A stretch of DNA of 64,000 nt, from the IMG/VR virus record IMGVR_UViG_3300012347_000104, positions 1 to 64,000 of that record; one strand, 5' to 3'. The position numbers and the translations under genes were made by a program. The notes beneath the pieces are model-generated. The model worked only from the letters and a program-made list of their open reading frames with translations. It did not search any database and was not told where the DNA came from. The stretch's first letter is position 1, and each line of letters begins with the position of its first letter. Shown one piece after another: positions 11,946 to 47,408 of this stretch. The DNA is from a virus. Lineage: Duplodnaviria; Caudoviricetes.

Positions 11946-12452
11946 CTATTTTAAAAACTCGTCAATCGACAAGTCGTAATGCAAGCTATTTATACGGTGT
12001 ACCCCTATTAGATACAATACGTAGCTTGACACACTACTACCACGACCTACTCCCCAAACAATATTATTCTTACGCATTGTATCAACTAGATACTTGCAAT
12101 AACATAGTAACGGGAATAACTCTTTTTCCTGATACAGTATTAGTTCTTGACCAACTCTCTGTAATTCAAAATCTTCTTTGCACTTCCCCAGTACCCACTG
12201 AGCGATATCTAACGTTCGATACTCATTTGGCATATACCAATTGTCCTGAGATTCAGCGTCATACTGAGCAGTAGATATATCGGACAGTAAGTTAGCAACT
12301 ATACTAGGAGCATTTTCAAGTTCAAGCACCGATGGTAAAGTAATTGCGGAATCAACTAACGCATTTTTTATAATTACATCAGGGTTTTTTAGGTAGGCAT
12401 CACACAGGTCATTTTCTGTGAGAACTTGCCTACTAAACTTATCGGTGTGCAT
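11946..12452 (-). CDS. dnaE: DNA polymerase III alpha (DnaE)-like fragment A: N-terminal palm with GRGS motif
   Basis: NNIVWGVGRGSSVSSYVLYLIGVHRINSLHYDLSIDEFLK matches the DnaE G(P)GRGS.AGSLVAY.L.IT..DP...DL.FERFL block. Confidence 0.85.
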   Translation of the reverse strand: MHTDKFSRQVLTENDLCDAYLKNPDVIIKNALVDSAITLPSVLELENAPSIVANLLSDISTAQYDAESQDNWYMPNEYRTLDIAQWVLGKCKEDFELQRVGQELILYQEKELFPLLCYCKYLVDTMRKNNIVWGVGRGSSVSSYVLYLIGVHRINSLHYDLSIDEFLK

Positions 12453-12458
12453 AGATTG

Positions 12459-12487
12459 ATTATAACAATCTTACAACAAAAAAGCAA
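12459..12487 (-). promoter_or_regulatory. sigma70-type promoter, leaderless, for DnaE fragment A
   Basis: TTGCTT-17-TATAAT, then 6 nt to ATG. Confidence 0.65.
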
Positions 12488-12490
12488 ATC

Positions 12491-13090
12491 TTATTTGTCC
12501 GTTTTCTCGAAGGTAGCAAAAACTACCTCACTTGCTGTTGTCTTTTTGGGTGTGCTTTCCCAAGCAAGGTCAAATTCTTCCCAATCTAACACTGCTTTTG
12601 ATAGTTTTACCACTTTTTTGTTTTTGGGCTTGATACTATTGATAGTGGGAGCAACGTCATGCCACCAACCTTTAAGCAAAAAGGGTCCACTATTATCTTC
12701 AATAGAGTAGAAGCAAATAACACCATCACTCATGCGGCTAGTAATTGAAATATCAGTTGCAACTAGTCTACCTTCTGCGATTGAATTCATCTTATGCAAA
12801 AGCATGATACCTATGATTTGGTCATATGGTTGTTCAGGTAGAGTGCATACCTTCAGCCCAATTTGAGAAAACTTCTCAATGGCGTCTAGTTCATCTTCAG
12901 GTACAAATATGCTATTCTGTAAACAGTATTCCAAATAGAACTTGATTCGTTCTAGTGCAATATTTTGTTCCTCAATCGATTCAGTATCAATGTTAAAGGT
13001 AACATCAAACTCATATTGATTGACAATGAATTCATTTTCAAAATGAACACACGCTAACAAATCGAAACCGCGTTGTACTCTTGCTGACAT
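12491..13090 (-). CDS. hypothetical protein, possible degenerate T-fold (QueD-like)
   Basis: 199 aa; pattern similarity only, QueD catalytic His/Cys absent. Confidence 0.35.
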   Translation of the reverse strand: MSARVQRGFDLLACVHFENEFIVNQYEFDVTFNIDTESIEEQNIALERIKFYLEYCLQNSIFVPEDELDAIEKFSQIGLKVCTLPEQPYDQIIGIMLLHKMNSIAEGRLVATDISITSRMSDGVICFYSIEDNSGPFLLKGWWHDVAPTINSIKPKNKKVVKLSKAVLDWEEFDLAWESTPKKTTASEVVFATFEKTDK

Positions 13091-13092
13091 AA

Positions 13093-13326
13093 TTAACCTT
13101 TTGACGAAATGTTGATTGAGTTTTGTACATTTTGCTTTTTGTACAGTGCATCTAACCGTGCGGCTATCTCAACTTGGTAGCTTTCGATAACCATTCGAAT
13201 TTGGGTGATTAGTGGGGTGTTTCCGGTTCTGAATGCGAAATTCAGTTTACCGTTTAAATCGGTAACCGTTTTTTGTAAATCTTCTAAAGACTTACTATCT
13301 AGGTCTGATACGAAGGGATGTTGCAT
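13093..13326 (-). CDS. small helical-hairpin hypothetical protein
   Basis: 77 aa; TTAAATA motif 5 nt upstream. Confidence 0.55.
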   Translation of the reverse strand: MQHPFVSDLDSKSLEDLQKTVTDLNGKLNFAFRTGNTPLITQIRMVIESYQVEIAARLDALYKKQNVQNSINISSKG

Positions 13327-13358
13327 GAAGATATTTAATACATCTTCATGCTATCAAA

Positions 13359-14180
13359 TTAAAATGTTGATAATGTAGTACGTTTCCAAATAGCAGTCGA
13401 GCCATCATATGTTCCGGTACAGATATAGAAATATGTACCATCTGTGCAAATGTGTCCCAATCTGTCGCCTTGCAAGCCTGTACGAGAAGGCTGACGGACT
13501 TCGATAGTACTAGCAGTTGTGCTACGATTTGTGGGCATAACGTCAATCGTTGTTCCGCAATCTACTGAGGTAACTGTTAGATTAATCTCAGATACTCCAT
13601 TGGGGATAGTGAATCCATTTGTATACTGAAAGGGCTGACTGTCTTCCGGTACGTGAGGGTATCCGTTCGAAACGTAATTCTCTAGAATGCGAATCGACTT
13701 GCTTGGACCTGCTGTGATAACTCCCTGTGAGTCTACCGAAGTAGTTGGGAAAATAACATTAGCTGTAGCTGCCGAAGCATCAATTTTTAAACGTAGCTTA
13801 ACTTGTGCCTCTGTTCCTGCAGGCGCCCATTTGCTAAAATCAAACTGCACGTCACCTGTAACGGTTCCGTACTGTACATCACCTTTTGTAGTGTCGATAA
13901 CAATTTGCCCAGTTAAGTTGCTTCCGATGTTGAATGTGCTCGCTCTGAACGTTTTAGTAACAGCATTACTGATAATAGTGTTTGCCATATCATTGTTTAA
14001 TGCTGCGCCGGTCAATGCTGACTTTACTACAACTTTAGATTGCAAGTCGTTTAACTCAGATTTAGTGGTATCTAGCGCCAACTTAATGTTTGAAAAGTTG
14101 TCTCTGAAGCCTTGAGTACTGTTGTTGACACCAGGTGTTGGGAAAGTGGTGCTGATTGAATTTGTGTTAATATTGCTCAT
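13359..14180 (-). CDS. putative virion structural (tail-associated) protein
   Basis: T/S/N-rich; N-terminal NNSTQGFRDNF + coiled coil; C-terminal fibre-type end GTYFYICTG...WKRTTL; late motif upstream. Confidence 0.6.
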   Translation of the reverse strand: MSNINTNSISTTFPTPGVNNSTQGFRDNFSNIKLALDTTKSELNDLQSKVVVKSALTGAALNNDMANTIISNAVTKTFRASTFNIGSNLTGQIVIDTTKGDVQYGTVTGDVQFDFSKWAPAGTEAQVKLRLKIDASAATANVIFPTTSVDSQGVITAGPSKSIRILENYVSNGYPHVPEDSQPFQYTNGFTIPNGVSEINLTVTSVDCGTTIDVMPTNRSTTASTIEVRQPSRTGLQGDRLGHICTDGTYFYICTGTYDGSTAIWKRTTLSTF

Positions 14181-14209
14181 GTGTTTGTTCCGATTACATA
14201 TTTATATGC

Positions 14210-16360
14210 TTATATCTTGGGTAAAATTGTTTCTCTGTTGAATAGAACAACATCATCATATTGTTCCAACGATTCTGGTGCAGGAGAAGCACTAGGTAAA
14301 TTACCCCAGACTGGTCTAGTCAGTGTAGTGTTCCAGTTGAACGTAGCACTTCTGTCTACGATGAATCTGTCTATTTCAAAATCAATATCACTAAGTTCGA
14401 ATGCCCAATAATTTTCAATATTAGACCTGACTGTCTCGGACTTTCCCGGTAACGTGTAGCATAGAACCCAAGCCTCAACATATCCCAAAGTGTTACCATC
14501 ATGTTGCTGACTAGTCATCCATTTTGGAAGTAAACTTTGGTCATAGTCATATTCTAAGTTTTGTTCGATTTCTTTGCGCATGTTCTCTAAACTCACTGGG
14601 TTTAGTAATTTTACATAACCCGGTGAGAAACTAGTGTGAGCTCCAGTAGACGATGTGAACTTATCTGTTCTACTATCATACCAATCACCGTAACGTAGAC
14701 CAATATCTTGCGGCCATGCAATACTCATAGGAACGCTTTGACCTTCAGCATTAGTTGCCGGATCAATAAGCGGAGCATATACTACTTCATATAAAACATT
14801 GTTGTTCTCATCTCTTGCAATAGCAGTTCTTAGTCTATCAAAGATGAATTTTTGACGATAGTGATTGTTGGGTATTGCGTTGAGGTATGATAGTGTGCTA
14901 GTTGCTACCACTCCATATTGGTGAACGATTCTAACATCAGCAGCCTTACCAAAATAAGGATCATTAGGTCTATACAAATACTCAGCAGGAATCAATGACT
15001 CGCTATTCAATAGTGATTTGATTATCTGTCTTCCTAATATGTTAGGGGCAGCTTTAAAATATAAAGTTTCTACTGGGCTTTCGAATCGTTGAAGAATATT
15101 CAACGTGAATGTTTGCACATTGCTAATCAGTGCATAACCAGACGAGTTTGCAGTTACTTCAAACGTAAAGGTAGAGACGTAATTCTTATCTCTGATAGTC
15201 TTTTCAGGTTGGAAGGGGAATCTACCAACTAACTCACCTGATTGTGTTAACGAGATATTAGGTGGGAGTTTGCCTCCAGTGACTGCATAAGAAAGAGGGG
15301 TAGGTGACACCGCTTCTAATTTGATGTCACATATAGTACCGTTATTATATGTGCCTAGATTCTTAGGGGATTTCCAAACAATTTCTTTCTCGTCATTATT
15401 TCTAATGTCAATAAAGAATGTTTCAGCATCACTTCTAAAAGAAGGATCTGCTGTTTTGAAAACAACGACAGATATCTCAAAACGTTCTATAGTACCCTCA
15501 GTAACTTCAGGTACGCCGGAGATCCAACCTGTAGTGGTATCTCCTAGTAAGCCCTTCGGTAAAGAAGAAAAGTTATACTCAATCTGGTCTCTATCAAAGT
15601 CATAACCCATTACCTTGAAAGAAAAATACTTTCCAGAGTCAATGATAGGTAAAGTATTACTAACTAATGTATAGTACCCTAAGAATGGATCAGACTTGTC
15701 TAATGGCAATTGTAACGGCTTGCTGTTCAATATCGCAGGGCTTCGCTTAACTGCAATTGATGTTAGTTGTTTATTTGTAATCTTAATAGAATACGGTTTT
15801 GAATCAGAACCCAAGTCAGAAGACGCAGTGATACTAAAAGAGAATTCACGTTCAGTAGGAGAACCATCTAGTAACACAGGTGGCTTTGCCCAACCAGATA
15901 TAGAACCATCAACACTCAAAAATAATCCAGGAGGAAGTTTCCCAGCAGAAATTCTAAAAAATACTTTGTTTGTTGTAACTGGATTAATCAACGGTATCTG
16001 ATAGAATACATATTCACTATCTTGAATATCGAATAGTTTGGTATTAGGAGCTGACAACTGTACACCGACATATGCTGAAATAGTAATTGAAAAGGTTCCA
16101 TCCTTGATGTTACCATATTCATCTGTCACACGTACTGTAAATGTGTGTAGCTTTGAGATTCCGGCGTTGGTTAACGTACCTGAAATTCTACCATCGGATG
16201 ATAACGAGATATCACCCTCAGGTAAAGAACCGTTAAGTAAAGAATATGTCAGTGAATTAGCGATGCCGGTTGGTGTGGCTTCCAACTTTATGTTTAATGG
16301 AATATTAGAAGGATGAAACCCTAGATTCCCCGGCAACGTTTTCCAAGATGGTTGAGACAT
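14210..16360 (-). CDS. baseplate/tail protein with putative Ig (He_PIG-like) repeats
   Basis: Repeated LP.GL.L...G.ISG.P motifs; location in the structural block. Confidence 0.65.
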   Translation of the reverse strand: MSQPSWKTLPGNLGFHPSNIPLNIKLEATPTGIANSLTYSLLNGSLPEGDISLSSDGRISGTLTNAGISKLHTFTVRVTDEYGNIKDGTFSITISAYVGVQLSAPNTKLFDIQDSEYVFYQIPLINPVTTNKVFFRISAGKLPPGLFLSVDGSISGWAKPPVLLDGSPTEREFSFSITASSDLGSDSKPYSIKITNKQLTSIAVKRSPAILNSKPLQLPLDKSDPFLGYYTLVSNTLPIIDSGKYFSFKVMGYDFDRDQIEYNFSSLPKGLLGDTTTGWISGVPEVTEGTIERFEISVVVFKTADPSFRSDAETFFIDIRNNDEKEIVWKSPKNLGTYNNGTICDIKLEAVSPTPLSYAVTGGKLPPNISLTQSGELVGRFPFQPEKTIRDKNYVSTFTFEVTANSSGYALISNVQTFTLNILQRFESPVETLYFKAAPNILGRQIIKSLLNSESLIPAEYLYRPNDPYFGKAADVRIVHQYGVVATSTLSYLNAIPNNHYRQKFIFDRLRTAIARDENNNVLYEVVYAPLIDPATNAEGQSVPMSIAWPQDIGLRYGDWYDSRTDKFTSSTGAHTSFSPGYVKLLNPVSLENMRKEIEQNLEYDYDQSLLPKWMTSQQHDGNTLGYVEAWVLCYTLPGKSETVRSNIENYWAFELSDIDFEIDRFIVDRSATFNWNTTLTRPVWGNLPSASPAPESLEQYDDVVLFNRETILPKI

Positions 16361-16362
16361 GA

Positions 16363-16992
16363 TTACCCTTGGTGTTGTAGCAAGTCTAATACTAAGTGGT
16401 AGTGATGTTGTCTATCTTCTAACCCAATTGTTCCGCCGTTGATTCTCTTTGTCAATGTAACAAAGTCATCACTGTCGCAGTATTGATTTAAGTTGTTATT
16501 ATCCCAGAACCAACCAGCTGAACTTACTGCACCCTGAGGTGTTTCTAGATAAGCTACTGTTTCTTCGATACTGATACCTAAGTCTGCGGCAAACTTTGTG
16601 TAGTTAGCACGACCGGTTAATTGAATAAGCCCTCTGCCACAGAAACGAAAACCATCACCTGATCCTTCGTCACCATTAGCCATACGATTAGCGTAAACAC
16701 GATTAGCAATTTTTTCAGGTTTTCTTTCATACTCTTTTGCTATCCCTTCATTAGGAAAATACTTTTTAAATGTAGTCATTAAACCTTTTGCACCGTAACT
16801 CAAATTCTCTTTCACGAAATTGAAGCCACCTGACTCATGTGCAACTTGTGCTAAAAATCCTGCCACTCTGCGAGGATTGTCGTACATGTCATAGTATTCT
16901 GCTACTTCATGTAATGGTTCTGCATATAATGCTAGAACGCTCTCTTTTGTTTTTGGGCATAAAGCCTTCAATAGTTCTAATGTTACTTTCAT
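16363..16992 (-). CDS. glycoside hydrolase family 19 endolysin
   Basis: FLAQVAHESGG, GRGLIQLTGRANY, SAGWFW, TKRINGGTIGLEDR. Confidence 0.92.
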   Translation of the reverse strand: MKVTLELLKALCPKTKESVLALYAEPLHEVAEYYDMYDNPRRVAGFLAQVAHESGGFNFVKENLSYGAKGLMTTFKKYFPNEGIAKEYERKPEKIANRVYANRMANGDEGSGDGFRFCGRGLIQLTGRANYTKFAADLGISIEETVAYLETPQGAVSSAGWFWDNNNLNQYCDSDDFVTLTKRINGGTIGLEDRQHHYHLVLDLLQHQG

Positions 16993-17004
16993 TTTTTGTT
17001 TCCT

Positions 17005-19686
17005 TTATGCGTAAATGCTTGTTAATGAATACCACTGAGTTGTTGAGGTAGAGTATAATACTAACTTACCGTCAACTCCTATTGTGACTGATGCACCTGC
17101 TAAGTTTTTGTCAATGAGTGACCCTGTAGGAGGGAAGACTTTTATTGGACTTGTTGATGCGTTGATAATCACAATGTTTAAACCGGCTACTGTCGCAGGT
17201 AATCTAACTGAGTCTGCTGAACTTGCTGTAGCTGAGGTTACTACGTTAAATTCTTTAGTAAGTACAAACGCAGAACCTATAGAAGTACCTGTTGCAGAGA
17301 TTCCAGCATCCACACTGTGTATGAAGAATCCTGATGCTGATAGATTGCCACCAGATATTGATGTTGCACCAGAGATGCCGCCACTTAGTGTAAGTGATGT
17401 TAGTGTGCCAAGTGAAGTAATAGTTGGTTGTGAAGAAGCAGAGACAGTCCCTGCAGTTATAGCTGTGTCAGCATCAGTTGCACTAGCTACTTTACTTACG
17501 TTTGCACCATTGATGCTTTCTAAATTCGCACCATTACCTTGAAACAATGTACCTACGACCGTTCCTAATGATGCATTACCACCACTGATATAACCGTTAG
17601 AATAAATCGTTGCTCCACCTGTCTTTAAGTTTCCACCTGTGATATTACCGGTAGCAGAAATGAGACCAGTAGTCCCAATGTTTCCTAAGTTTGCGTTAGA
17701 TGTTACATTCAGTGTACCTGCCGTAGATAAGTTACCAGCAGTTGCGGTACCTGTCACTGATAGTAGGCCTGCTGCATTGATGTTAGCCATATTGCTATCA
17801 CCTGCACGTAGAATTCCAGTTATGTTTAGATTACCACCATTGACATTTCCAACTACATTTAATCCTGTTCCCGCACTAATGACCGTACCTGCGACAGACA
17901 TAGATCCTATTGCAGAACTATTAAAAGTAACTTCTGTATTAGAACATGTTAGAACGGTGACACCTGATGCTGAAGTGTTGTACCCGGTTGGAGTAACTCC
18001 CTGAACAACAATAGTTTGCCCAACTGCGAAAGGAGGGAACGTTTGTGTAGGGAACGCAATTGTTGCTATCATACCGTCACCGGATGTAGCAGTAATCGAT
18101 AAGTTCGCCCCAATTGATAATGTGTTAGCCATCTTAGCGCCAGCAGCCATATTCATGATGCCAGCAGCAGTGACGTTGCCTAATGAAGAATTACCTACAA
18201 CAGTCAATATACCTTCAGCCGTAACATTCGAGCGACCTAAAAAGTCACCAGTAATGTCAGCAAGACCAGATGAGTATAGAGATGCACCTGCTAATTGACC
18301 GTTTGTTGTGATGAAGCTGCCATTAGTTGTGTTAATGTTTCCGGTAATGTTAGCATTACCAGTTGTAGCGATTGTCGCAGCAGATACTAAACCAGAAGTA
18401 GTTAGACTTCCTACGTTTGCTGCTCCGTCAACTTTAAGAATTCCACTTGCTACAAGGTTCGCACCTTCTACGTTTCCTGATACTGCAACCTTTACACCAT
18501 TTACGTTTGTAGTTGTGATATTACCAATACTTGCATCACCGGCTACTTCTAAGTAACCGCTAGTAGATAAGTTACCACCAGTAACTGTACTAGTTGCAGA
18601 TAATATTCCTAGAGAGATAACACTATTTGCAGACACTGTTCCTGTATTTGCAAATACATTACCACCAGTAGATAAGTTACCAACTGTTGCTGTCTTCGTA
18701 ACTGACATTGCACCACTAGTGATTACGTTGCCACCTTCAACGTTGCCTTGAATTGTCAATAGGCTTGTTGTTTTGTTATATGCTAGTCCAGGAACAGCAG
18801 CAGCTTTACCACCATCGTTGAACATAACAGCCATGTTGTTAGAAGGTCCGCCAGGAGCATCAAGTGTTGCGCCCGGTGGTAATACAATATTACCTGTAAT
18901 AGTTCCAGCAGTGAACACACCGGATACATTCATAGTTGATGCATTTACTGCATATGAATCTAGGTTACCTACTAGAGAAATGTTACCACTAGACAAATTA
19001 CCGTCAACTTGTAATCCTTGAAGAATACCTACGCGGGTAATATTACCTTGGTCAGGTGTTGTTAATGGACCTGCAATTTCAACACCTGTAATTTGATCCG
19101 CTTCAACAGTACCAACACTCAAATTTCCAGTTACCAAACCAGAAGAAATTTGAAATCCTTCGTCAGATGAAGAAATTGACTGACCACCAATCCTAATTGT
19201 GTTACCTGATAACCACAAGTCTCGCCATCTGTTAGTCGGGGAACCTAAGTCCAAAATACTGTTACCTTCAGGAACCAAAGCTGATTTCACTACACCGGTG
19301 ACGTTAAGGTTAGCTATTTGTATATTTCCCGAGAAGTTACCGTTAACTGTTGAAATGGTATTCGCTAGACCAATAACGAAGGGAGTGGTATCAGAAACTA
19401 CAGCTACGTTTGAGAAACTAGTACTTAATTCCGGCTTAACTACTAAACTGTTAGGAGTTGTTTTAATTGTAACGTTTGCAACGTTTGCATATACTACTAA
19501 ATTTCCAGAAATGCGCTCGTCTTCATTACGCAAACCAAAGCCTGGAACTACTTCTAACACACCCTGTTTCAGTGAGTTAGTGTACAAATCTGTGAAGTTA
19601 TCTTGTATTTTTTGAAATGCTTCTCTAATCGATTCCGCTGAGGGATCGTTAGGGAAAGAACCAAAGTCAATATACTGCTGAGTCAT
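17005..19686 (-). CDS. long tail fibre-like protein with GN(I/L/V) repeats
   Basis: 893 aa; dozens of short G-N-hydrophobic repeats typical of beta-helical/beta-spiral fibres; N-terminal REAFQKIQDNFTDLY fibre-attachment-like segment. Confidence 0.7.
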   Translation of the reverse strand: MTQQYIDFGSFPNDPSAESIREAFQKIQDNFTDLYTNSLKQGVLEVVPGFGLRNEDERISGNLVVYANVANVTIKTTPNSLVVKPELSTSFSNVAVVSDTTPFVIGLANTISTVNGNFSGNIQIANLNVTGVVKSALVPEGNSILDLGSPTNRWRDLWLSGNTIRIGGQSISSSDEGFQISSGLVTGNLSVGTVEADQITGVEIAGPLTTPDQGNITRVGILQGLQVDGNLSSGNISLVGNLDSYAVNASTMNVSGVFTAGTITGNIVLPPGATLDAPGGPSNNMAVMFNDGGKAAAVPGLAYNKTTSLLTIQGNVEGGNVITSGAMSVTKTATVGNLSTGGNVFANTGTVSANSVISLGILSATSTVTGGNLSTSGYLEVAGDASIGNITTTNVNGVKVAVSGNVEGANLVASGILKVDGAANVGSLTTSGLVSAATIATTGNANITGNINTTNGSFITTNGQLAGASLYSSGLADITGDFLGRSNVTAEGILTVVGNSSLGNVTAAGIMNMAAGAKMANTLSIGANLSITATSGDGMIATIAFPTQTFPPFAVGQTIVVQGVTPTGYNTSASGVTVLTCSNTEVTFNSSAIGSMSVAGTVISAGTGLNVVGNVNGGNLNITGILRAGDSNMANINAAGLLSVTGTATAGNLSTAGTLNVTSNANLGNIGTTGLISATGNITGGNLKTGGATIYSNGYISGGNASLGTVVGTLFQGNGANLESINGANVSKVASATDADTAITAGTVSASSQPTITSLGTLTSLTLSGGISGATSISGGNLSASGFFIHSVDAGISATGTSIGSAFVLTKEFNVVTSATASSADSVRLPATVAGLNIVIINASTSPIKVFPPTGSLIDKNLAGASVTIGVDGKLVLYSTSTTQWYSLTSIYA

Positions 19687-19731
19687 GTTAAATCTACCTT
19701 ATGTTGTATTTATCATAAAGTATGACCAAAA

Positions 19732-19757
19732 AAATAGCCCACCGAAGTGAGCTATTT
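19732..19757 (-). terminator. intrinsic terminator with UUCG loop
   Basis: Minus strand AATAGCTCAC-TTCG-GTGGGCTATT-TTTT. Confidence 0.85.
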
Positions 19758-19773
19758 AAAATACGGTTTCTTA

Positions 19774-21837: not shown

Positions 21838-21846
21838 ATCGTGTCC

Positions 21847-22059: not shown

Positions 22060-22060
22060 T

Positions 22061-22669: not shown

Positions 22670-22697
22670 CTTTTGTATTCCTATTATATTATTTATC

Positions 22698-23189: not shown

Positions 23190-23216
23190 ACTACTATCCT
23201 ATAATAGTAGTATTTA

Positions 23217-36099: not shown

Positions 36100-36107
36100 G
36101 GTAAACA

Positions 36108-37463: not shown

Positions 37464-37482
37464 CTATGAGATAAATCATAGT

Positions 37483-37905: not shown

Positions 37906-37917
37906 AGCGGCTTTTTT
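37891..37917. terminator. bidirectional intrinsic terminator
   Basis: AAAAAAGCCGC-ATAAA-GCGGCTTTTTT between convergent genes. Confidence 0.85.
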
Positions 37918-37934
37918 GTTGTGCTTAAAAAATA

Positions 37935-38915: not shown

Positions 38916-38988
38916 TTTGTTTCCTTTAGAATGACGTTCTAGGTCTACGCAGAGGGATTCTGCATAAATTAATTGAACAATGTATTTA

Positions 38989-39339
38989 TCAGACCTGAGT
39001 CATTGTGACGTTATACACGTTACCTGAAGAAATTTCAGTAAAGAATACACCACCGCTGTTGGCGTGCATCGTGAACGTTGCGCTCACTGTAAATGTGTTT
39101 GCTGATACTACGTTTGCTGAACCTTGAATCTGAGAAAATGCAATAGAACAGTTAGGACTGTTAGTTAATATTTCAGTGTTTGTTGGGTTATTACCTTCTT
39201 GAGGAACCCAAGAAGGATCGTTGCCAATGAATACTCGTTGTTCATCCGAAGCGAATCCAATCTCACCAATATCTAATTGTGGAATCTCATCTGCTGAGCC
39301 GGTTCTGTGAACGATTTTTGAAATTTGTACGATTGCCAT
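38989..39339 (-). CDS. short protein with major-tropism-determinant N-terminal-like (fibre shoulder) domain
   Basis: MAIVQISKIVHRTG...LDIGEIGFASDEQRVFIGN. Confidence 0.6.
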   Translation of the reverse strand: MAIVQISKIVHRTGSADEIPQLDIGEIGFASDEQRVFIGNDPSWVPQEGNNPTNTEILTNSPNCSIAFSQIQGSANVVSANTFTVSATFTMHANSGGVFFTEISSGNVYNVTMTQV

Positions 39340-39376
39340 AGTATATCTTCTCTAGTGATATACTATTTATCATCGT

Positions 39377-40063
39377 TTATGCGAACTTGGTGTAGAATTC
39401 TTCTAGCTTTTTATACCACTCTTGTTGGTACTTATCGAATTCATTGCCCTCGATTATGAACTCTTGGTACATAGCGTTCGGATCACACATGAAAATAACT
39501 CCCTTGCGGATCTTTGTCCCATGAAGTTCATTGTGAGCTGTTGCATATGCCGCAAGTTGAACAAAGTAGTCATCAATCCACTCTCTTTTCTTGGGTTTAT
39601 TAGTCTGCTTATGATCCATGATAGATTCACTGCCATCATGCACACCGACCAAATCAGTTGTTCCAGCATAGACCGCAGGGAAGTATAGAGGGACTTCAGT
39701 GCCCCAGAATTCAGTGCAGTTACATAAACCTTGCCTGATAATTGAGTCAGCCATCTTGTGACTTTGGATACTGTATGGGTTAGAACCTGACGCACCTAAT
39801 GCTCCTGTTAATACGTAATCTTCCAAGAACTTATGCATTCTTGTGCCACGACTTGCAGCTTCTGTTGAAATCTCTTGCGCCTTAGCGGTACCTACTCTAT
39901 TACGCCATTGTTGTAGAACTAGTTTCTTTTCTTCTGATTGAGTAGCAGAAAGAATAGTAGTGACTGACGGTAGTTTGTTACCATCAGGGGTAGCATAGCG
40001 TCTACCTTCAGGGGTATCGACTCTTTTCAAAGCCTCATATTTAAATTTATTGGGAATGTACAT
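39377..40063 (-). CDS. PD-(D/E)xK exonuclease (lambda-exo/MGME1-like)
   Basis: LPSVTTIL, RGTRMH, E.PL....YAGTTD.V...IMDHKQT, YFVQLAAY. Confidence 0.85.
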   Translation of the reverse strand: MYIPNKFKYEALKRVDTPEGRRYATPDGNKLPSVTTILSATQSEEKKLVLQQWRNRVGTAKAQEISTEAASRGTRMHKFLEDYVLTGALGASGSNPYSIQSHKMADSIIRQGLCNCTEFWGTEVPLYFPAVYAGTTDLVGVHDGSESIMDHKQTNKPKKREWIDDYFVQLAAYATAHNELHGTKIRKGVIFMCDPNAMYQEFIIEGNEFDKYQQEWYKKLEEFYTKFA

Positions 40064-40069
40064 ATGGCA

Positions 40070-40099
40070 ATTGTACTATAAATTTCTTCATAGTACAAT
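40070..40099 (-). promoter_or_regulatory. leaderless sigma70-type promoter formed by a 10-bp inverted repeat
   Basis: TTGTAC-17-TACAAT, 6 nt to ATG; ATTGTACTAT/ATAGTACAAT arms. Confidence 0.55.
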
Positions 40100-40107
40100 C
40101 TGTTTGG

Positions 40108-40428
40108 TTAAGCTAATTTGTTTGATTGCTTTTTAGCCATTTGCTGACGAATCTGTTCATTCTCGTCGGGTCTAGGTTCTTCCATCTCACCTTGTTGACC
40201 CTTAAACACTACTTGTTTACTTTCAATATCTTGGATAATGTTTACAAGAGGTTCTTTTTTGATAATATCGTAAATATCGTCATCATCAATAGAGATTTTG
40301 TTTGAGCGGAGAATTTCAACAAACTGGTCTAGTGGCATAGGTTCGCTACTATTAGATTTTAATTGAGTAGCGACCCCTGTTAACTTGACTCGCAGCGGAT
40401 CATCGTCAGCGAACTCGAATAATCTCAT
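40108..40428 (-). CDS. hypothetical protein, MRLFE N-terminus
   Basis: 106 aa. Confidence 0.6.
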   Translation of the reverse strand: MRLFEFADDDPLRVKLTGVATQLKSNSSEPMPLDQFVEILRSNKISIDDDDIYDIIKKEPLVNIIQDIESKQVVFKGQQGEMEEPRPDENEQIRQQMAKKQSNKLA

Positions 40429-40429
40429 A

Positions 40430-41143
40430 TTAACGAGTTGCGCGGCCTACGCTTGATAGTTCTTCTGGCTCTTCTTCGGGCATTTCTGCATCTAAATCTG
40501 CTTCGCCGCCCATGTCCATACCTGAATCATCGACTGATACATCAGACATTTCATCGCCCATGCCCATGTCATCACCTGCCATGCTCATATCAGCAGCGCC
40601 TTGACCAGTAATGATACCGACAGCACCTGAGATACCTGTCTTAGCGCCAGTTAGTGCGGCTTGCAATGCTGTCAACGCTTGAGTAACTTGGTCATTGAAT
40701 TGTTGACCCTCATTTGTTCCTACTTCTGAATTGACACCGTCAACGACTGCTGGAAGTTCTTTAACTAGCATGTCAGAAACTTGCTCGACCATCTTTTGTA
40801 AACTGTCAGCCATTTCTTGTGCAGCCAAGATAACTTGTGATTTCTCAACTTGCTCGTTTTCTACAACGATACGTTGATTGTACATTGGACGAGCCTTCAA
40901 ATCACCATAGTGATGTGTAAGTGCTTGTTCCATGAACAATGCTTTTAAGAAAGCTGGATTCTGTTCGCTACGAACAGCTTTATCTGATGACTTCATCTCA
41001 GCGATAAGACCACGCACTTTCGTCAACATTTGACGAGTAGCTTGTAGGTCTAGCTTAGATGTATTGACATCAGTGTTGAAATGCTCTTTGAGTGCTTTTT
41101 TAGCAACTTGAGATTTCTTTAGGTTAAATTCGTTAAGTTTCAT
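40430..41143 (-). CDS. putative prohead core/scaffold-like protein
   Basis: MKLNE N-terminus, coiled coil, D/M/E-rich tail; late promoter at 41169-41176. Confidence 0.45.
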   Translation of the reverse strand: MKLNEFNLKKSQVAKKALKEHFNTDVNTSKLDLQATRQMLTKVRGLIAEMKSSDKAVRSEQNPAFLKALFMEQALTHHYGDLKARPMYNQRIVVENEQVEKSQVILAAQEMADSLQKMVEQVSDMLVKELPAVVDGVNSEVGTNEGQQFNDQVTQALTALQAALTGAKTGISGAVGIITGQGAADMSMAGDDMGMGDEMSDVSVDDSGMDMGGEADLDAEMPEEEPEELSSVGRATR

Positions 41144-41186
41144 GGTTGTTCCTAGAGTACTAATAATGTATTTATCATTATTAAAT

Positions 41187-41660
41187 TTATTTGACGGCTT
41201 CTTTGAATCGCTTTTCTTGCCAAGTCTTAGAATTCAGAATATAGCGATTAAGTTCCGCTGTAATCATAGTCTTTTTGAGTTTATCTTCCTGTAGTTTAGC
41301 AGAATAGATGAGTTTTTTGTCGATATCTTTAGCTTTTTTGTAGAGTTGCGTATGCACTTCGAGGTTTACTACTGTTCCCTCAAGCATTAAATCCAAGTCA
41401 AGTACACGGTTTGCATCGCCAACTCTCTCACGTTTGTACATAGTAGCCCAAGCTACTGCATTACGTAAACTGTGAAATTCTTCGGTTAAGCTAGTGTGAT
41501 ATTTTTCTACGATGAACTTGTTATTTGTAGGCTTGATGAAGAACTCACCAAACAACTCATACCCGCCGTTCGTGGTAATTACTAATGCTTTCTCAAGGGC
41601 AGCAAGGTCGTTGTCAGTAATCAGACGTTTGAACTTTTCAAACATTTTCTTATCACGCAT
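41187..41660 (-). CDS. hypothetical protein
   Basis: 157 aa. Confidence 0.6.
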   Translation of the reverse strand: MRDKKMFEKFKRLITDNDLAALEKALVITTNGGYELFGEFFIKPTNNKFIVEKYHTSLTEEFHSLRNAVAWATMYKRERVGDANRVLDLDLMLEGTVVNLEVHTQLYKKAKDIDKKLIYSAKLQEDKLKKTMITAELNRYILNSKTWQEKRFKEAVK

Positions 41661-42111
41661 GGCTTATTACCTCAAAGTGGATATTTCTCAATTCAGAGCT
41701 GGTATCTAAAAAATCAGGGAGTTTGTTCCACTCTCTGGATGTTTTAGTCATGGGTACTCCGTGACAGTCTTCGAACAAGTAGCCCAGATTATCTATACCG
41801 TCATCAAATACGTTTTCTTTGGCTATGTCAAAATCAAAGACCCAGCAAGATTGATCCTCTTCGTTGTCGAATAGAAATCCAAACTTCTCTAACATAGCGA
41901 AGTTAATTTTCTTTTGTTCTGGATTTGACGAATTTTCAGGTTGACACCGTATTGAAATTATTTGCATCACTGTATCAAAATTAGTTTGAGCATTACGCTT
42001 TATTTCCCAATCTTTGTACTGCTCTGTTGTAAAATTTACAGATGGTCGTCGGCTAATTGTCTGCGTTCTTGTAACGTCAAAAAGTGTATGGCATCTGATT
42101 CTATAACTCAT
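41653..42111 (-). CDS. hypothetical late protein
   Basis: 152 aa; TATAAATA 4 nt upstream. Confidence 0.6.
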   Translation of the reverse strand: MSYRIRCHTLFDVTRTQTISRRPSVNFTTEQYKDWEIKRNAQTNFDTVMQIISIRCQPENSSNPEQKKINFAMLEKFGFLFDNEEDQSCWVFDFDIAKENVFDDGIDNLGYLFEDCHGVPMTKTSREWNKLPDFLDTSSELRNIHFEVISHA

Positions 42112-42130
42112 ACTCTATTTATAGAAGTAA

Positions 42131-42154
42131 AAAAGCCCTAGAAATTCTAGGGCT
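42131..42154 (-). terminator. intrinsic terminator
   Basis: AGCCCTAGAA-AT-TTCTAGGGCT-TTTT on the minus strand. Confidence 0.75.
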
Positions 42155-42159
42155 AGTCT

Positions 42160-42897
42160 TTATTCGTTCGCGCCTCTGACAATGTTTGGATTGTCGTCTT
42201 GCGGTACGTTTGGTTTAGGTCGTTGTCCTGTAGCAACCATCTTAACCATCTCAGCATACTCACCCGGAGCTACTTTATTCAATGCGTTTAATGCTGCTCT
42301 TAGAATAGCTTCCAAATCATCAATTGCACTAGGAATTGCCAACATGCTAATTTGACTAATAATTTTACTTGTTGCCGGACTTAGTTGGTCTGCTGTACCT
42401 AACGTATTCTTGCTGTTAGGATCAGCGTTCGCTGGCATTGGCTTTCCGGCTGCTTGTGGTTGAGCAGTAGCCCCACCGTTACGGTTTTGCATGCCGATTT
42501 GATACAATACGTCACCTATTTTAGACGAATCTTTTGTACGTGCTGCTGAATTTAATGCTTGCTGTTGCTGAGTAGTTAAAGGACCCCAGTTATTCTTCTG
42601 GATGTATGACTGTAGATATGAAGTGGGGTTAAATGCACCGCCACCACCTCTTGCAAGAGTATCAAATTCTGCTTTGAAATCTTTAACGTAGTTATCTTTT
42701 CTAACTGCCATTTTTGCATCTGCACCACCAAAGCCAGTAGCCTTGAACAATCCCTTTTTAAACGCACTAGGTCCGGTGTTTGTTTTAGTTGCTACTTGCT
42801 TAGGAGCTGCTTGAGTTGGCGTTTGGGCGGCACCTGCGTTAGGATTTCTTGCATTCTTCCAAACCGCAGCTTCTGTGATTACGTCTTTAATTTTCAT
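42160..42897 (-). CDS. putative internal virion protein (start reassigned to MKIKDVITE)
   Basis: A/Q/P-rich; ATG at 42897 overlaps the end of the upstream gene. Confidence 0.55.
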   Translation of the reverse strand: MKIKDVITEAAVWKNARNPNAGAAQTPTQAAPKQVATKTNTGPSAFKKGLFKATGFGGADAKMAVRKDNYVKDFKAEFDTLARGGGGAFNPTSYLQSYIQKNNWGPLTTQQQQALNSAARTKDSSKIGDVLYQIGMQNRNGGATAQPQAAGKPMPANADPNSKNTLGTADQLSPATSKIISQISMLAIPSAIDDLEAILRAALNALNKVAPGEYAEMVKMVATGQRPKPNVPQDDNPNIVRGANE

Positions 42898-43132
42898 CGT
42901 TTTTCCTGATACTCTTGGAAAATCTAGATTGGTCTCGTGACTTGATTGCCCCGAGTAATTTTCGCTCAAGAATAGCTGCCACCTCAGGATCATAGTTCTG
43001 ATTAATCATTTCTAATAGATTAATCGCACTAGTGATAATATTGTGGGCTCGGCTTTCGATGATGTGTTTAGTATCACGTTTCTGACCGATCGACTCTAAC
43101 TCCTCTAAGAGGCTGCGTGTATTCTTTTGCAT
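42887..43132 (-). CDS. small helical late protein
   Basis: 81 aa; GATAAATA at 43152-43159. Confidence 0.6.
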   Translation of the reverse strand: MQKNTRSLLEELESIGQKRDTKHIIESRAHNIITSAINLLEMINQNYDPEVAAILERKLLGAIKSRDQSRFSKSIRKNDEN

Positions 43133-43157
43133 AAAATAGATATCCTATCAGTATTTA

Positions 43158-44618
43158 TCATCTTTTCAGATTGTTGAGCATTGCTTTTAACTTACTGCCC
43201 TGGACATCTGCCACTACTTTTTTCTCTAGAGGCTCTAGAATTTCCCCAGTATCGGGGTTAATAATATCAGTCGTGCTATTCAACGTAGACTGAGGTTTCA
43301 ACTGACTCATAATATCATTAGGACTCGGAGCCGGACGATACTTAGCTTGCTGTTCTGCATAACCATCAGGATCTTCATCAGTGATACGCATTGTGTCAAT
43401 ATTGTAGTCTAAGTCAATCTTTTGACCAACACCAGTAGAACTACGTGACTTCATACACTGCATTTGATACTTCCCACGCTCACGCATACTACGACTTGTG
43501 AAGATACCGAACACGTTATCCGCTGTGTTAATCTTTGAAATACCACCTGCGATATGACTATGGTCGAATTCAACTTCTTCAACGGCTGAACGATTCAACT
43601 GTGACGCTGTAACTAACAATACACCTAGTTCTTTAGCTAAGTTACGCAATTCTTCTGAAACATACTTGTCTTTAATGAACTGGTCGTTAGGGTTAACTTT
43701 AACAGATACAGGCATAACCAAATCTAAGTAGTCAACCATCACAAAGTCAACTTTGATACCTGTTTGAATTTGAACTTCTTTCAAGTATGAACGAATGTCG
43801 TTAACGTTTGATTGAGCAGGTAATGCTTTCACCCGATATTGACCTGACTTCTTGGCAAGCATCTTGACCTTCAAGTGAGCATCATCAATGCTTCTACGAA
43901 TGTCTTTTGTACCCATGCTAGTTGCCATCGCATCAGTACGCAACGATGTAAGTTCTTCTGAAAGTTCAAGCGTGATATAAACACCACTCATACCTGTACT
44001 CAACCAGTTCAACGCTAAGTTCATCATAACAAGAGACTTACCTGAACCTGAGCCACCTGCAAAGATGTTCAATTCACCACGAGACATACCACCGTAAAGA
44101 ATCTTATCCATTTGGGGCCAGCCTGTCGAGACCTGTCCACCTGCATTAAAGTACTTGTTGATACGTGCTTTAGGGTCAAAGAAGTAATCTGTACCCATGT
44201 CTTTCTGTAGACTAATTTGCACAGCATCTTTGATTAGTTTTTCAACAGGATCAAAGTCGCCCTTCTCAAGCATATCAGCTGCCTTAAGAATAGCACGTTC
44301 AAGTTCTTGCCGCTTAGTAAAAGCCTCAAAGGCATCTAAGAACCACTCATTGTGACCTTCATTAAGTTCAGGAATAGATTCAATATCAATTCCTGTCATT
44401 GCTTTAATCTGAGTTGTATCAGGAAGTACCTTATACTTGTCAGTATGTTCTTTGAACAGTTCAGCCGCAGGTCTTAATGACTTGTCAAAATTCTCCGAAT
44501 TCATAATGTTCATCACACGAGTGTATAAACTCGCATCTGTTAACATCATGCGCAAAAATAATTTCTGTACGTCTGGTGTGTAGTCTAGTTGTTTTTTAGA
44601 ATCCGTTTTGTTTGCCAA
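43158..44618 (-). CDS. gp41: replicative DnaB-like helicase (T4 gp41-like)
   Basis: STGW..MD..LYGG, AGGSGSGKS, ITLELSE, MVDYLDL, TASQLNR, KSRSS. Confidence 0.92.
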   Translation of the reverse strand: MANKTDSKKQLDYTPDVQKLFLRMMLTDASLYTRVMNIMNSENFDKSLRPAAELFKEHTDKYKVLPDTTQIKAMTGIDIESIPELNEGHNEWFLDAFEAFTKRQELERAILKAADMLEKGDFDPVEKLIKDAVQISLQKDMGTDYFFDPKARINKYFNAGGQVSTGWPQMDKILYGGMSRGELNIFAGGSGSGKSLVMMNLALNWLSTGMSGVYITLELSEELTSLRTDAMATSMGTKDIRRSIDDAHLKVKMLAKKSGQYRVKALPAQSNVNDIRSYLKEVQIQTGIKVDFVMVDYLDLVMPVSVKVNPNDQFIKDKYVSEELRNLAKELGVLLVTASQLNRSAVEEVEFDHSHIAGGISKINTADNVFGIFTSRSMRERGKYQMQCMKSRSSTGVGQKIDLDYNIDTMRITDEDPDGYAEQQAKYRPAPSPNDIMSQLKPQSTLNSTTDIINPDTGEILEPLEKKVVADVQGSKLKAMLNNLKR

Positions 44619-45582
44619 TCTTTTTCCTCTGCATTTCTAATTTTATTTTACTCATTGTAGCATTTTGTAGTATTGAAAGTACAGTAGCAAGTTTGCCGTA
44701 CTTTACAACTGCATCGTTTACGTCTTTGATGCTAGGTTCCCAGTTAGGTAAACTAACACTATACCCTAATTCTAATGCTCTATCAATCATCTTTAATCCC
44801 GTCTTATCGAAATCGGGTACTACGATGATTCTTCTGTTTAGTTGTGCAAGCAACACCGCCTGTTCAGGGCTAATGTCATCATGCATAACTGCCACACCAT
44901 CTATGCTAAGTGCGTCAAAGATTCCTTCGGTTACAATACATACCTGCCAATCTGGACTTTGTATATCAATGTTGAATACGTAGCCAGCTTGTTGGTCGTT
45001 AATATATTTTGGTATTTTTTTATCGAGGTATCTACTTGTGTTGCCGACAATCATATTGTTATAAGTGTACGGAACAATGACACGATTCTTATTTCTGCCG
45101 CCCATTGAATCATCATGGGGTGTAACTAAGAATGGATATGACTCTATATCTATCTTGCGTCCTTGCAGATAATCTACGAATACTTTGTGTTCTGGGTTAT
45201 TTTTATCTAAGAGTTCACCGTCTGGTAATTTCTTCTCAGCAAATGCAATACGCTCTCTGCGCTTTGGCTCGATGTAGTCGAGCAGGTCTTTGTGTTGTAG
45301 ACTCTCAAGACTCCAACGTTGTACTTGTTCTTTGTCTACCCCACACCATTGTAGAAAGTCTCTAGTTTTGGGTGTTATTGACTTGCCTAATTGAAATCCA
45401 CAACTGAATCTACAATTGAAGCAGTGCATAATCCAATTAGTCTGTCCGTCAAACTTTATGCCGCCGCGACCTCTACGATCCGATTTGTGACCGCGATGAC
45501 CGCAACAAACCGCATTGAAGCTAGTCCAACCGCTACTTGTGTTTTTCTTTTTACCGGGAATGATTGAAAGGATATCGAACAT
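44596..45582 (-). CDS. gp61: DNA primase (DnaG/T4 gp61-like)
   Basis: N-terminal Zn ribbon (CC...HCFNC), TOPRIM EGIFDA and PDFD. Confidence 0.85.
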   Translation of the reverse strand: MFDILSIIPGKKKNTSSGWTSFNAVCCGHRGHKSDRRGRGGIKFDGQTNWIMHCFNCRFSCGFQLGKSITPKTRDFLQWCGVDKEQVQRWSLESLQHKDLLDYIEPKRRERIAFAEKKLPDGELLDKNNPEHKVFVDYLQGRKIDIESYPFLVTPHDDSMGGRNKNRVIVPYTYNNMIVGNTSRYLDKKIPKYINDQQAGYVFNIDIQSPDWQVCIVTEGIFDALSIDGVAVMHDDISPEQAVLLAQLNRRIIVVPDFDKTGLKMIDRALELGYSVSLPNWEPSIKDVNDAVVKYGKLATVLSILQNATMSKIKLEMQRKKIGKQNGF

Positions 45583-45590
45583 GCTTTGCT

Positions 45591-45619
45591 ATTATAACAA
45601 AGTATGTATACGAAAGCAA
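45591..45619 (-). promoter_or_regulatory. sigma70-type promoter, near-leaderless, for primase-helicase
   Basis: TTGCTT-17-TATAAT, 8 nt to ATG. Confidence 0.65.
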
Positions 45620-45631
45620 TAGAGTTGGTAA

Positions 45632-46378
45632 TTATCTTACGACTAATTTATCCACAGTGCCCTGTGAACTAACGAATTCGACACGAACATATGGATGAAA
45701 ACCTTCGATAGTGTAAACATCACCCTGTGTGCTTTCAATGTAAGAAGTTGAGCCACCTATGTTATACCAATCACCGTTAGGAACAGTGGAACCTTGGACC
45801 TGTGCAGTACCACTGTAATCTGTCAAAAATGATTGGATAGTAAGAACCGGGTTGTATTCTGTATTGATAATATCGCTGTAGAACGTTACAGTATTATTAT
45901 TTGGGGCAGTATGTGATGGTACACCCATTTCCATCGATGGCACGTGAGCTGGTAGAATACTATTAGTAATTTCAATCGTACCTCTTGCGCCTGCATCTCC
46001 TGCAACAAATACAGGTAAGTCAAATGAGTCTACTGGAATCTCTATAGAATAGACTGCTTTTTGGGCTTGCATGATATCAAGTTCAGATGATTGGACACGC
46101 AATTCCATCAAACCGGTAAGTGGTAAAACAGGATGTAATGCTGATTGAAGCAATGTTACTGTTCCGGCGCTACTGATGATTCTACAAGTGATTTCCTTAC
46201 CTGTTACGTCAATTGGTTTTTGTTCTTGATTTAAGAACTGGAACTGTATTCTATTGTCAACTCCTTTGTGAAGTTTTAGATTCTTAGCGTACACGGTTTG
46301 GTATCTCCTTGGTGATGAGCCAGTAATCAACACAACGATTTGTCTTGGGATGTAAAAATAAACTGATGTTGAGTACAC
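45632..46378 (-). CDS. putative virion structural protein
   Basis: beta-rich, ends FHPYVRVEF; GTG start with TAAGGAG; late motif upstream. Confidence 0.55.
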   Translation of the reverse strand: MYSTSVYFYIPRQIVVLITGSSPRRYQTVYAKNLKLHKGVDNRIQFQFLNQEQKPIDVTGKEITCRIISSAGTVTLLQSALHPVLPLTGLMELRVQSSELDIMQAQKAVYSIEIPVDSFDLPVFVAGDAGARGTIEITNSILPAHVPSMEMGVPSHTAPNNNTVTFYSDIINTEYNPVLTIQSFLTDYSGTAQVQGSTVPNGDWYNIGGSTSYIESTQGDVYTIEGFHPYVRVEFVSSQGTVDKLVVR

Positions 46379-46460
46379 TATATGGCTCCTTATACTCTAT
46401 TTATGACAAATAAAATAATGGGTTTTGCCCGAAGATAAATATTCCTAGACGACAAAAATA

Positions 46461-46841
46461 ATGATTCACAACGAATTCTTCCAGAAACTAACCGAAAATC
46501 ACCCGTTCATCACGGTATGTTCTTACGCAGGACAGGACTATGTGGGGATTGTCCAAAACAGGGACGATATCGTTACCACTATATACGATTACGGCTCTAT
46601 CATTGAGCATAATATGCGTGAAAGATTTTTAGAACTAGGGGACATTTGGTGGTGGGAATCCAACAGATTAGTCCCCATTAATATGTTCTTAAAGGATGAC
46701 TGGTCGATGTTCAAGCCATATCTAAGAACATTCAACAACAAGAGCCTAACAGTTATTCACGGACCTATATGTAGTATGCTTGAACTAAGCAAACGCAAGA
46801 GCAAAAGAAAATCAATTACTCTCGTCAAGAGAATGTCCTAA
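46461..46841 (+). CDS. hypothetical late protein
   Basis: 126 aa; GATAAATA at 46434-46441; convergent overlap with DnaE fragment B. Confidence 0.65.
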   Translation: MIHNEFFQKLTENHPFITVCSYAGQDYVGIVQNRDDIVTTIYDYGSIIEHNMRERFLELGDIWWWESNRLVPINMFLKDDWSMFKPYLRTFNNKSLTVIHGPICSMLELSKRKSKRKSITLVKRMS

Positions 46842-47408
46842 TCCCTCAGCAAGTAGATTCATATGCACTACGACTAGATTTGCGTAGGCAATAGCATGAC
46901 TTTTCTTAAAACTGTATCCGTCATCATACTTCTCCCACACCGACTTAGCAACATCTTTCCAAGATAATCCAATCAAGTACTTCTTTGCAGGACGAATCGC
47001 TGCAAGAAACATCGCAAGTCTGGGAATACTATCAATAGGTTCAGGCATCTTTTGCATACTGTTGTAGTGATTGCTCAAGTGAATCAACTTCTCAACAAAA
47101 GACCTATCGTTAAGTTTAGACCAATCAGGTTCTCTCATTAACTCAATTAAATGCTGTTCATCACGTACATGTGTGTAAACGTGAACATTCAACAAGTCTA
47201 ACTTAAAATAGCCACGTGCTTCTGCGTCAGTGTAGTCGATATTAGCCATATTGTTTAGTGCATCATATGGCACATCAGTGATGTGTACACCTGTTGCATG
47301 TTTACGTATAGGCGTGACATTGCGCATCGCAGCAGGAATGTGCTTGATGTGTTCTAAGATAGCATCACGACTACCAAAGTCAATGTCAATATCTGATTGA
47401 AATTTCAT
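46812..47408 (-). CDS. dnaE: DNA polymerase III alpha (DnaE)-like fragment B: catalytic aspartates and truncated fingers
   Basis: SDIDIDF, RKHATGV, GYFKLDLL, AAIRP, GYSFKKSHAIAYA = DnaE PDxDxDF, KHAxG, KxDxL, A(L)xRPG, YxFNKSHxxAY. Confidence 0.85.
   Translation of the reverse strand: MKFQSDIDIDFGSRDAILEHIKHIPAAMRNVTPIRKHATGVHITDVPYDALNNMANIDYTDAEARGYFKLDLLNVHVYTHVRDEQHLIELMREPDWSKLNDRSFVEKLIHLSNHYNSMQKMPEPIDSIPRLAMFLAAIRPAKKYLIGLSWKDVAKSVWEKYDDGYSFKKSHAIAYANLVVVHMNLLAEGLGHSLDESN

Follow-up and report, generated by a model that had tools for sequence, protein, structure and literature searches.

A Minimal DNA Polymerase III α Encoded as Two Separate Halves by a Freshwater Relative of the Group 2.2 Jumbo Phages

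Two distant genes of a viral genome fragment

The window analyzed here is a 64,000-nucleotide stretch of viral DNA (IMG/VR virus record IMGVR_UViG_3300012347_000104; Duplodnaviria, Caudoviricetes) that comprises the first 64 kb of a 72.5-kb record with an estimated completeness of 21%; its source is an uncultured giant phage of freshwater. Near-identical DNA is found in freshwater metagenomes, from which all of the DNA sequencing runs listed with window-like DNA also derive; no RNA sequencing run is listed with such DNA. Two short genes of the window, termed A and B, lie far apart on the same strand, and each almost certainly encodes one half of a minimal split DNA polymerase III α (Pol III α) of the group 2.2 (T4-like, RaK2/PA5oct/Atu_ph07-type) jumbo phages. 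Both genes had been noticed in an earlier reading made from the letters of the window, hereafter the sequence-only reading, and both open reading frames (ORFs) are present where it had placed them, with the motifs that it had quoted (Table 1).

Table 1. Genes A and B and neighboring genes in the window
Feature	Position	Strand	Length (residues)	Basis or remark
Gene A, N-terminal half of the minimal Pol III α palm	11946..12452	-	168	Pfam, phrog, PDB profile, fold
Gene B, C-terminal half: palm β-sheet and reduced finger bundle	46812..47408	-	198	phrog, PDB profile, fold
phrog_11637 gene, convergent with B	46461..46841	+	126	30-nt overlap with B at the 3' ends of both genes
Rv2179c-like DEDDh exonuclease	47405..47965	-	186	PF16473, E 8e-34; phrog_255
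T4 gp61-type DNA primase	44596..45582	-		phrog_47, E 3.5e-36; synteny
Small conserved hypothetical gene (phrog_14844) and GroES-like co-chaperonin/head-morphogenesis gene, downstream of A	11239-11613, 11610-11936	-		

Architecture of the A protein

The C-terminal part of the A protein is recognizable as a segment of Pol III α. Residues 97–167 match positions 24–94 of the Pfam family DNA_pol3_alpha (PF07733) with an E-value of 2.3e-9 (37.7 bits, the cut-off being 23.9), and the protein matches phrog_11127 with an E-value of 8e-39. The A profile aligns, through its final residue, with residues 320–393 of Escherichia coli Pol III α and with residues 382–455 of the Thermus aquaticus (Taq) enzyme. 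In this alignment, R137-G138-S139 of A correspond to R362-G363-S364 of the E. coli enzyme, and the last residue of A, K168, corresponds to N393. E165 stands at the position of E. coli R390, which binds the triphosphate, such that an arginine of the bacterial enzyme is replaced by a conserved glutamate. The fold is in keeping with the sequence alignment: the AlphaFold2 model of A has a predicted local distance difference test score (pLDDT) of 86.6, and residues 69–168 superpose on E. coli Pol III α residues 279–393 (VIA Z of 8.9–10.1) and on PolC residues 823–964 (Z of 10.7). The matches in the fold search with A are Pol III α and PolC chains only, with non-polymerase chains all below a Z of 2.

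The residues that define this segment are retained over large distances. Across eight distant phages, with hosts ranging from Klebsiella to Agrobacterium, the invariant positions of A include G134, G136, R137, G138, and S139, which make up a GxGRGS block, as well as E165 and F166. The C termini are equally constrained. All eight proteins close with …EF[LF][KEN], placed at most two residues from the end, and the A ORFs of 80 loci taken from IMG/VR end in EF[LI]K.

Residues 1–68, which precede the palm segment, form a small predicted α/β domain (pLDDT of 75–89), for which fold comparison gave no counterpart in Pol III α structures. The sequence of this domain varies with the phage lineage, several lineages having a DxYG-like start in common.

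Architecture of the B protein

The B protein matches phrog_11778 with an E-value of 7e-55, and single-sequence searches of Pfam, NCBIfam, and the PDB with B gave no match. A profile built from 80 diverse homologues of B retrieves Pol III α chains only from the PDB (E-value of 1.3e-5), and it does so in three blocks: residues 4–21 align with E. coli residues 399–418, residues 54–140 with 538–641, and residues 151–180 with 739–769. The AlphaFold2 model of B has a pLDDT of 94.4 and superposes on residues 458–849 of Taq Pol III α over 195 of its 198 residues (VIA Z of 9.5, root mean square deviation of 3.7 Å) and on residues 399–786 of E. coli Pol III α (VIA Z of 8.2), with the first unrelated chain at a Z of 2.9. 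The connection of B to Pol III α is drawn solely from these profile and fold searches, and the Foldseek E-values, taken alone, are weak (2e-3).

The equivalences place the catalytic center of the polymerase in B. The start methionine, M1, falls close to E. coli R396, the residues D6, D8, and D10 correspond to D401, D403, and D405, and K69 and D71 correspond to K553 and D555. Further downstream, R139-P140 correspond to R639-P640, and the O-helix residues K169-S170-H171-Y175 correspond to K758-S759-H760-Y764. Conservation across 86 diverse B sequences is 96–97% for D6, D8, and D10, 100% for K69 and D71, 98% for R139 and P140, and 95% for H171; most B ORFs of a second set of 80 IMG/VR loci start with M[KR]xxSDIDIDF. 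Two of these positions are informative as to the class of enzyme. The steric gate of the E. coli enzyme is H760, an invariant residue of Pol III α (PMC8485763), and the Ser-His pair that includes H760 (S759-H760) is kept in the O-helix of B as S170-H171. The residue equivalent to E. coli D405 is an aspartate in every DnaE group and an asparagine in PolC (PMC3919608), and its retention as D10 hints at a DnaE-type origin.

Around this center, B is strongly reduced. Its ~200 residues cover ~390 residues of DnaE, with the thumb (E. coli residues ~419–510) shortened to ~14 residues, the finger segment 642–738, including R709 and R710, replaced by ~10 residues, and nothing left of the enzyme after residue ~790. 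Together, A and B cover E. coli residues 279–393 and 397–792 only, with ~200 residues deleted, and they do not constitute a canonical DnaE.

The junction between the two chains

With A ending at the equivalent of E. coli N393 and B starting near R396, the two chains abut almost exactly: the contiguous bacterial sequence is longer by only about two residues. In ordinary DnaE genes, this junction reads …FERFLNP[ED]R[VI]SMPD[FI]D…; in the window, A ends …EFLK and B opens M-K-F-Q-S-D, with no surplus residues relative to DnaE. The division comes after the helix that succeeds the GS motif and before the β-strand bearing the first two catalytic aspartates. As a consequence, neither protein has a complete active site: the nucleotide-binding loop is in A, and all of the metal ligands are in B. 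Every lineage examined has the same split point.

The residue map agrees closely with the sequence-only reading, which had proposed that the genes abut nearly residue for residue and that the GS motif and three catalytic aspartates are kept. R137-G138-S139 of A and D6, D8, and D71 of B are aligned and conserved. The two arginines that it had described as lost, in the bacterial FERF and ERVS motifs, are indeed absent, with R390 being the conserved E165 and R396 falling on the start methionine of B. Profile and fold alignments, together with the lack of a PHP family match, likewise show that the PHP, thumb, helix-hairpin-helix (HhH), OB, and clamp-binding parts are lacking, largely as it had stated.

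Co-occurrence, selection, and distribution

Both halves are maintained together. The co-occurrence set comprises 13 complete or near-complete relatives, namely five large IMG/VR relatives, three of them complete as judged by terminal repeats or 100% CheckV completeness, and the named phages RaK2, Phosso, PAC2, Atu_ph07, Vibrio phage 2.275.O, GAP32, CBB, and SCTP-2. A and B are both present in 13/13 of these genomes and are always far apart, at a spacing of 34.4 kb in the window and of 35–256 kb in relatives. The pairwise ratio of nonsynonymous to synonymous substitution (dN/dS) is 0.08 for A and 0.08 for B, indicative of strong purifying selection on both. Co-occurrence and dN/dS had been singled out by the sequence-only reading as informative, and loss of the catalytic aspartates or pseudogene decay as signs that would speak against it. 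Neither sign appears: the aspartates are conserved at 96% or above, and the ORFs are intact in 80/80 B loci and 80/80 A loci (160/160), with the same ends.

The detection of A is less sensitive than that of B. By tblastn, A alone matches 78 records versus 96 for B, and the GAP32/CBB-type phages are missed. A profile detects A in both GAP32 and CBB, and the tblastn result therefore reflects a gap in sensitivity rather than an absence of the gene.

In addition to A and B, all five large IMG/VR relatives encode a family B polymerase (PolB) of ~900 residues. Each of these five genomes contains one PF07733 match, as does the record of the window, itself a fragment, and no PHP (PF02811) or finger (PF17657) domain is found in the five.

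The split enzyme is abundant. Among 8,000 candidates scored in public metagenomes, A and B each yield more than 7,900 clusters at 90% identity (E ≤ 1e-3), and B yields 360 representatives at 50% identity, nearly all of ~190–215 residues. A profile scan of 185,579 species genomes with a 10-row B alignment gave matches only on contigs of metagenome-assembled genomes (MAGs) of unrelated bacteria and archaea. There are 14 such contigs, including the 335-kb PBPT01000016.1, binned as 'Candidatus Neomarinimicrobiota'. These are most likely jumbo-phage contigs that were binned into cellular MAGs, and, because the few 'bacterial' matches are MAG contigs of unrelated taxa, the split enzyme appears to be restricted to phages.

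A natural single-chain form

In one case, the two halves are found in a single protein. P0282 is a natural single-chain minimal Pol III α of 375 residues, encoded at positions 1066–2193 of L097, an AT-rich 2.4-kb metagenome contig from ENA. Residues 79–180 of P0282 match A (38% identity, E-value of 1e-16), residues 190–370 match B (E-value of 1.8e-30), and the two parts are linked by 10 residues, DNKEGIYNIA. Both modules and their motifs are the same in P0282 and in the split pair, the difference being that in P0282 they are joined by this linker. DnaE family models run straight across the P0282 junction, with residues 92–206 aligning with TIGR00594 positions 302–417. As with B, the gene for P0282 is followed by a convergent phrog_11637-like small gene.

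P0282 is the sole fused form found, and its cluster has one member. A word-index search for longer relatives of B gave none, no relative of P0282 was found in IMG/VR, and a metagenome scan with P0282 returned ordinary full-size DnaE genes only.

Gene neighborhoods of A and B

Gene B lies in a conserved block that consists of B, the phrog_11637 gene, a virion protein gene, the primase gene, and a helicase gene. The primase gene is present in the window, in agreement with the sequence-only reading. Gene A is likewise followed by the small gene and then by the GroES-like gene in RaK2, PAC2, Atu_ph07, Phosso, and Vibrio phage 2.275.O, and a clamp-loader gene comes next in RaK2 and Atu_ph07 and likewise in PAC2, where it is annotated as an AAA protein. 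The gene order of A and B, which in all lineages puts B with the primase and helicase genes and A beside a GroES-like gene and the clamp loader, fits a replisome-associated role, although it proves nothing.

The most constant neighbor of B is the convergent phrog_11637 gene. All lineages examined have it on the strand opposite to B and downstream of B, in most cases with the two genes overlapping or directly adjoining. It is beside B in 80/80 close loci, in 13/13 distant loci, and in eight named phages, in addition to its position next to P0282. The encoded protein contains a WWWExNR motif, ends in a basic C-terminal tail (KRIKRR, for example), and is better conserved than B in distant relatives (62% versus 44% in L199, for example). 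It has no Pfam or NCBIfam match, and its profile gave only chance-level matches in the PDB. That it acts with the polymerase is only a guess.

On the other side of B, the stop codon of the exonuclease gene overlaps the start codon of B through the ATGA in CGATGAAA, which confirms the coupling described in the sequence-only reading. The proposal attached to it, that the exonuclease serves as a proofreader in trans, fares less well. The exonuclease gene is upstream of B in 70/80 loci of the clade of the window, but a different gene occupies this place in RaK2, PAC2, Atu_ph07, Phosso, GAP32, CBB, and SCTP-2. In RaK2 and Phosso, the Rv2179c-like exonuclease is encoded at a great distance from B, and the family is not found in PAC2, Atu_ph07, or Vibrio phage 2.275.O, all of which have the split enzyme. 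A general proofreading partnership is not supported, since the exonuclease adjoins B only in the freshwater clade of the window; within this clade, proofreading by the exonuclease together with the split enzyme could still take place. The junction between the exonuclease gene and B is also a hot spot for insertions, with 0 to ~2.2 kb of extra small genes in relatives and the tight ATGA overlap in the window.

Discussion

Collinearity with DnaE, fold matches restricted to Pol III α, and conservation of the catalytic residues bear out the proposal of the sequence-only reading that A and B together make up a single minimal C-family nucleotidyltransferase, divided in two without an intein, and the 13/13 co-occurrence, the equal purifying selection, and the natural fusion strengthen it further. 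The two proteins very probably form an obligate heterodimer. A would contribute the first part of a Pol-β-type palm, that is, helices and the strand and loop that carry the R-G-S nucleotide-binding motif, and B would contribute the remaining palm sheet, on which the K-x-D strand and the three aspartates of DnaE type are found, as well as a cut-down finger bundle with the O-helix. A and B are predicted to dock non-covalently, probably completing one β-sheet, to give a single Pol-β-type active site.

The reaction carried out at this site is suggested by the residues that are kept. Retention of the steric-gate histidine and of the DnaE-type D405 points to the use of deoxynucleoside triphosphates (dNTPs) on a primer-template. 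The enzyme would be expected to bind DNA weakly and to act distributively, given that it has no thumb, few of the fingers, and no HhH, clamp-binding, or OB parts, that R390 is replaced by glutamate, and that the R709/R710 segment is deleted. Such a protein may function as an accessory polymerase beside the family B replicase of the phage, with primer extension, gap filling, or repair as possible jobs. On balance, split minimal Pol III halves that rebuild one catalytic center, accessory to a family B replicase, are the probable explanation of the data as a whole, held with good confidence.

Several points weigh against this interpretation. Several of the DnaE residues that grip the triphosphate or the DNA are missing, with R390 changed to glutamate, E. 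coli residues 642–738 deleted, and the thumb reduced to ~14 residues. Because these residues are missing, templated synthesis cannot be taken for granted, and the assignment of A and B as a template-dependent DNA polymerase is favored by a narrow measure. Literature searches found no experimental study of any member of the split-enzyme family, and neither a paper on phage PaBG nor a search for PA5oct omics work yielded anything about it. The family B polymerase, whose presence elsewhere in the genome the sequence-only reading had raised as a question, is present in the large relatives, but none is found in the 72.5-kb record to which the window belongs, a 21% fragment; in syntenic relatives, PolB lies ~30 kb beyond A, a position that is off the fragment. 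Last, P0282 is supporting evidence for one enzyme and not proof, as it comes from a single 2.4-kb contig and stands alone in its cluster.

The same losses could instead indicate that A and B form one Pol-β-fold active site devoted to another reaction, as a template-independent or specialized nucleotidyltransferase that, for example, tails ends, nucleotidylates a protein or a nucleic acid, or makes a nucleotide signal. In favor of such a function are the absence of the DNA-gripping parts (thumb, most of the fingers, HhH, and OB), the presence of a family-wide invariant acidic residue in place of R390, and the complete T4-type replisome with PolB that the relatives already have. Against it, the equivalents of the O-helix residues K758-S759-H760-Y764 are kept, with H171 at 95%, which would be pointless for a substrate other than a dNTP, and B lies in the primase/helicase block and A next to the clamp loader. 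A function of this kind is unlikely.

A more specific version of the polymerase model would have the split mini-Pol III extend primase-made primers before hand-off to PolB, with the phrog_11637 protein as a third subunit for DNA binding or tethering. This proposal is drawn only from the conserved gene order, and it is quite unlikely in this particular form.

It is very improbable that A and B are separate relics, be they solo structural or regulatory proteins without joint catalysis or decaying fragments of a captured dnaE. The separation of the genes, 34 kb in the window and up to 256 kb in relatives, and their placement in different gene blocks are compatible with independent fates. However, dN/dS is 0.08 in both halves, hundreds of clusters at 50% identity retain the catalytic residues, the split point is the same in every lineage, the halves co-occur in all 13 genomes, a natural fusion exists, and neither half alone has a complete active site.

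Covalent joining of the halves after translation by a split intein of the cyanobacterial DnaE type, or at the RNA level, can be dismissed: inteins do occur in other genes of related phages, such as PolB of MIJ3 (PMC6892783), but here, as the sequence-only reading had noted, the junction has no spare residues compared with DnaE, Pfam finds no intein domain in A or B, the 168 and 198 residues are wholly taken up by the palm and finger folds, which leaves no room for an intein, and the genes are at least 34 kb apart.

The two-protein polymerase has a precedent among jumbo phages. Iyer, Anantharaman, Krishnan, Burroughs, and Aravind (2021, Viruses 13:63, PMC7824862; sections 3.4.1 and 3.5, Fig. 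3b) described the split enzyme from sequence in group 2.2 jumbo phages, where it occurs beside a family B polymerase, and suggested a role in the synthesis of one strand or in repair. The split enzyme has thus been known since 2021, and the window is one more example. The pair in the window and the enzyme of Iyer et al. share distant genes for an N-terminal NTP-binding half and a C-terminal metal- and template-binding half, lack other Pol III domains, and lie in syntenic gene blocks, with a T4-like replisome and PolB in the genomes of relatives. PHROGs lists both halves as 'DNA polymerase' families, and RefSeq names both genes 'DNA polymerase' in RaK2, Atu_ph07, GAP32, and CBB, a label also used in 121Q. 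The main differences between the window and the nearest cultured phages are the low identity, only 44–47% for B and 36–52% for A, and the exonuclease gene directly upstream of B, which is peculiar to the freshwater clade of the window as compared with cultured group 2.2 phages. Added here are the single-chain P0282, a residue map in which R390 becomes glutamate and the steric gate is kept, the equal selection on both halves, the clade-limited linkage to the exonuclease, and the adjacency of the convergent phrog_11637 gene in every lineage examined.

Structural comparisons with bacterial DnaE cores (E. coli, 2HNH and 2HQA; T. aquaticus, 2HPI and 3E0D; Mycobacterium tuberculosis DnaE1, 5LEW and 7PU7) show the same palm. 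The phage pair and the DnaE core have their motifs in the same order, R362-G363-S364, D401/D403/D405, K553/D555, R639-P640, and K758-S759-H760-Y764 in E. coli numbering. The phage enzyme differs in being made of two proteins, cut at N393/R396, in being devoid of the PHP, HhH, β-clamp motif, OB, and τ-binding parts, and in the extra 68-residue N-terminal domain of A.

Other divided or paired C-family polymerases resemble this one only in part. In cyanobacteria, the split DnaE (Synechocystis/Nostoc DnaE-n and DnaE-c) is likewise encoded by two genes that are far apart. There, the halves are spliced by a split intein to give full-length DnaE, and the chain is divided at another place in the protein, whereas the phage split has no intein and runs through the active-site palm. 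The two-polymerase replisome of Bacillus, in which DnaE extends primers and PolC carries out bulk synthesis, offers a functional analogy only: in the phages, too, a DnaE-type enzyme stands beside a different main replicase, with B near the primase and helicase genes, but the Bacillus DnaE is full-size and binds the clamp. A split of a different kind from that of A and B is seen on contig OKRZ01000398.1 (L192, positions 3366–7382), where the coding sequence of an otherwise ordinary, full-size DnaE is divided between two adjacent ORFs, one for a 382-residue PHP protein and one for a 933-residue polymerase, with a gap of 66 bp between them.

No smaller version of the bacterial replicative polymerase core is known than the enzyme encoded by A and B, with its active site assembled from two separately encoded chains, and this enzyme is very common in nature. 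The single chain of P0282 would provide a convenient handle for biochemistry, and the family as a whole lends itself to asking how much of a C-family polymerase can be dispensed with before catalysis is lost.

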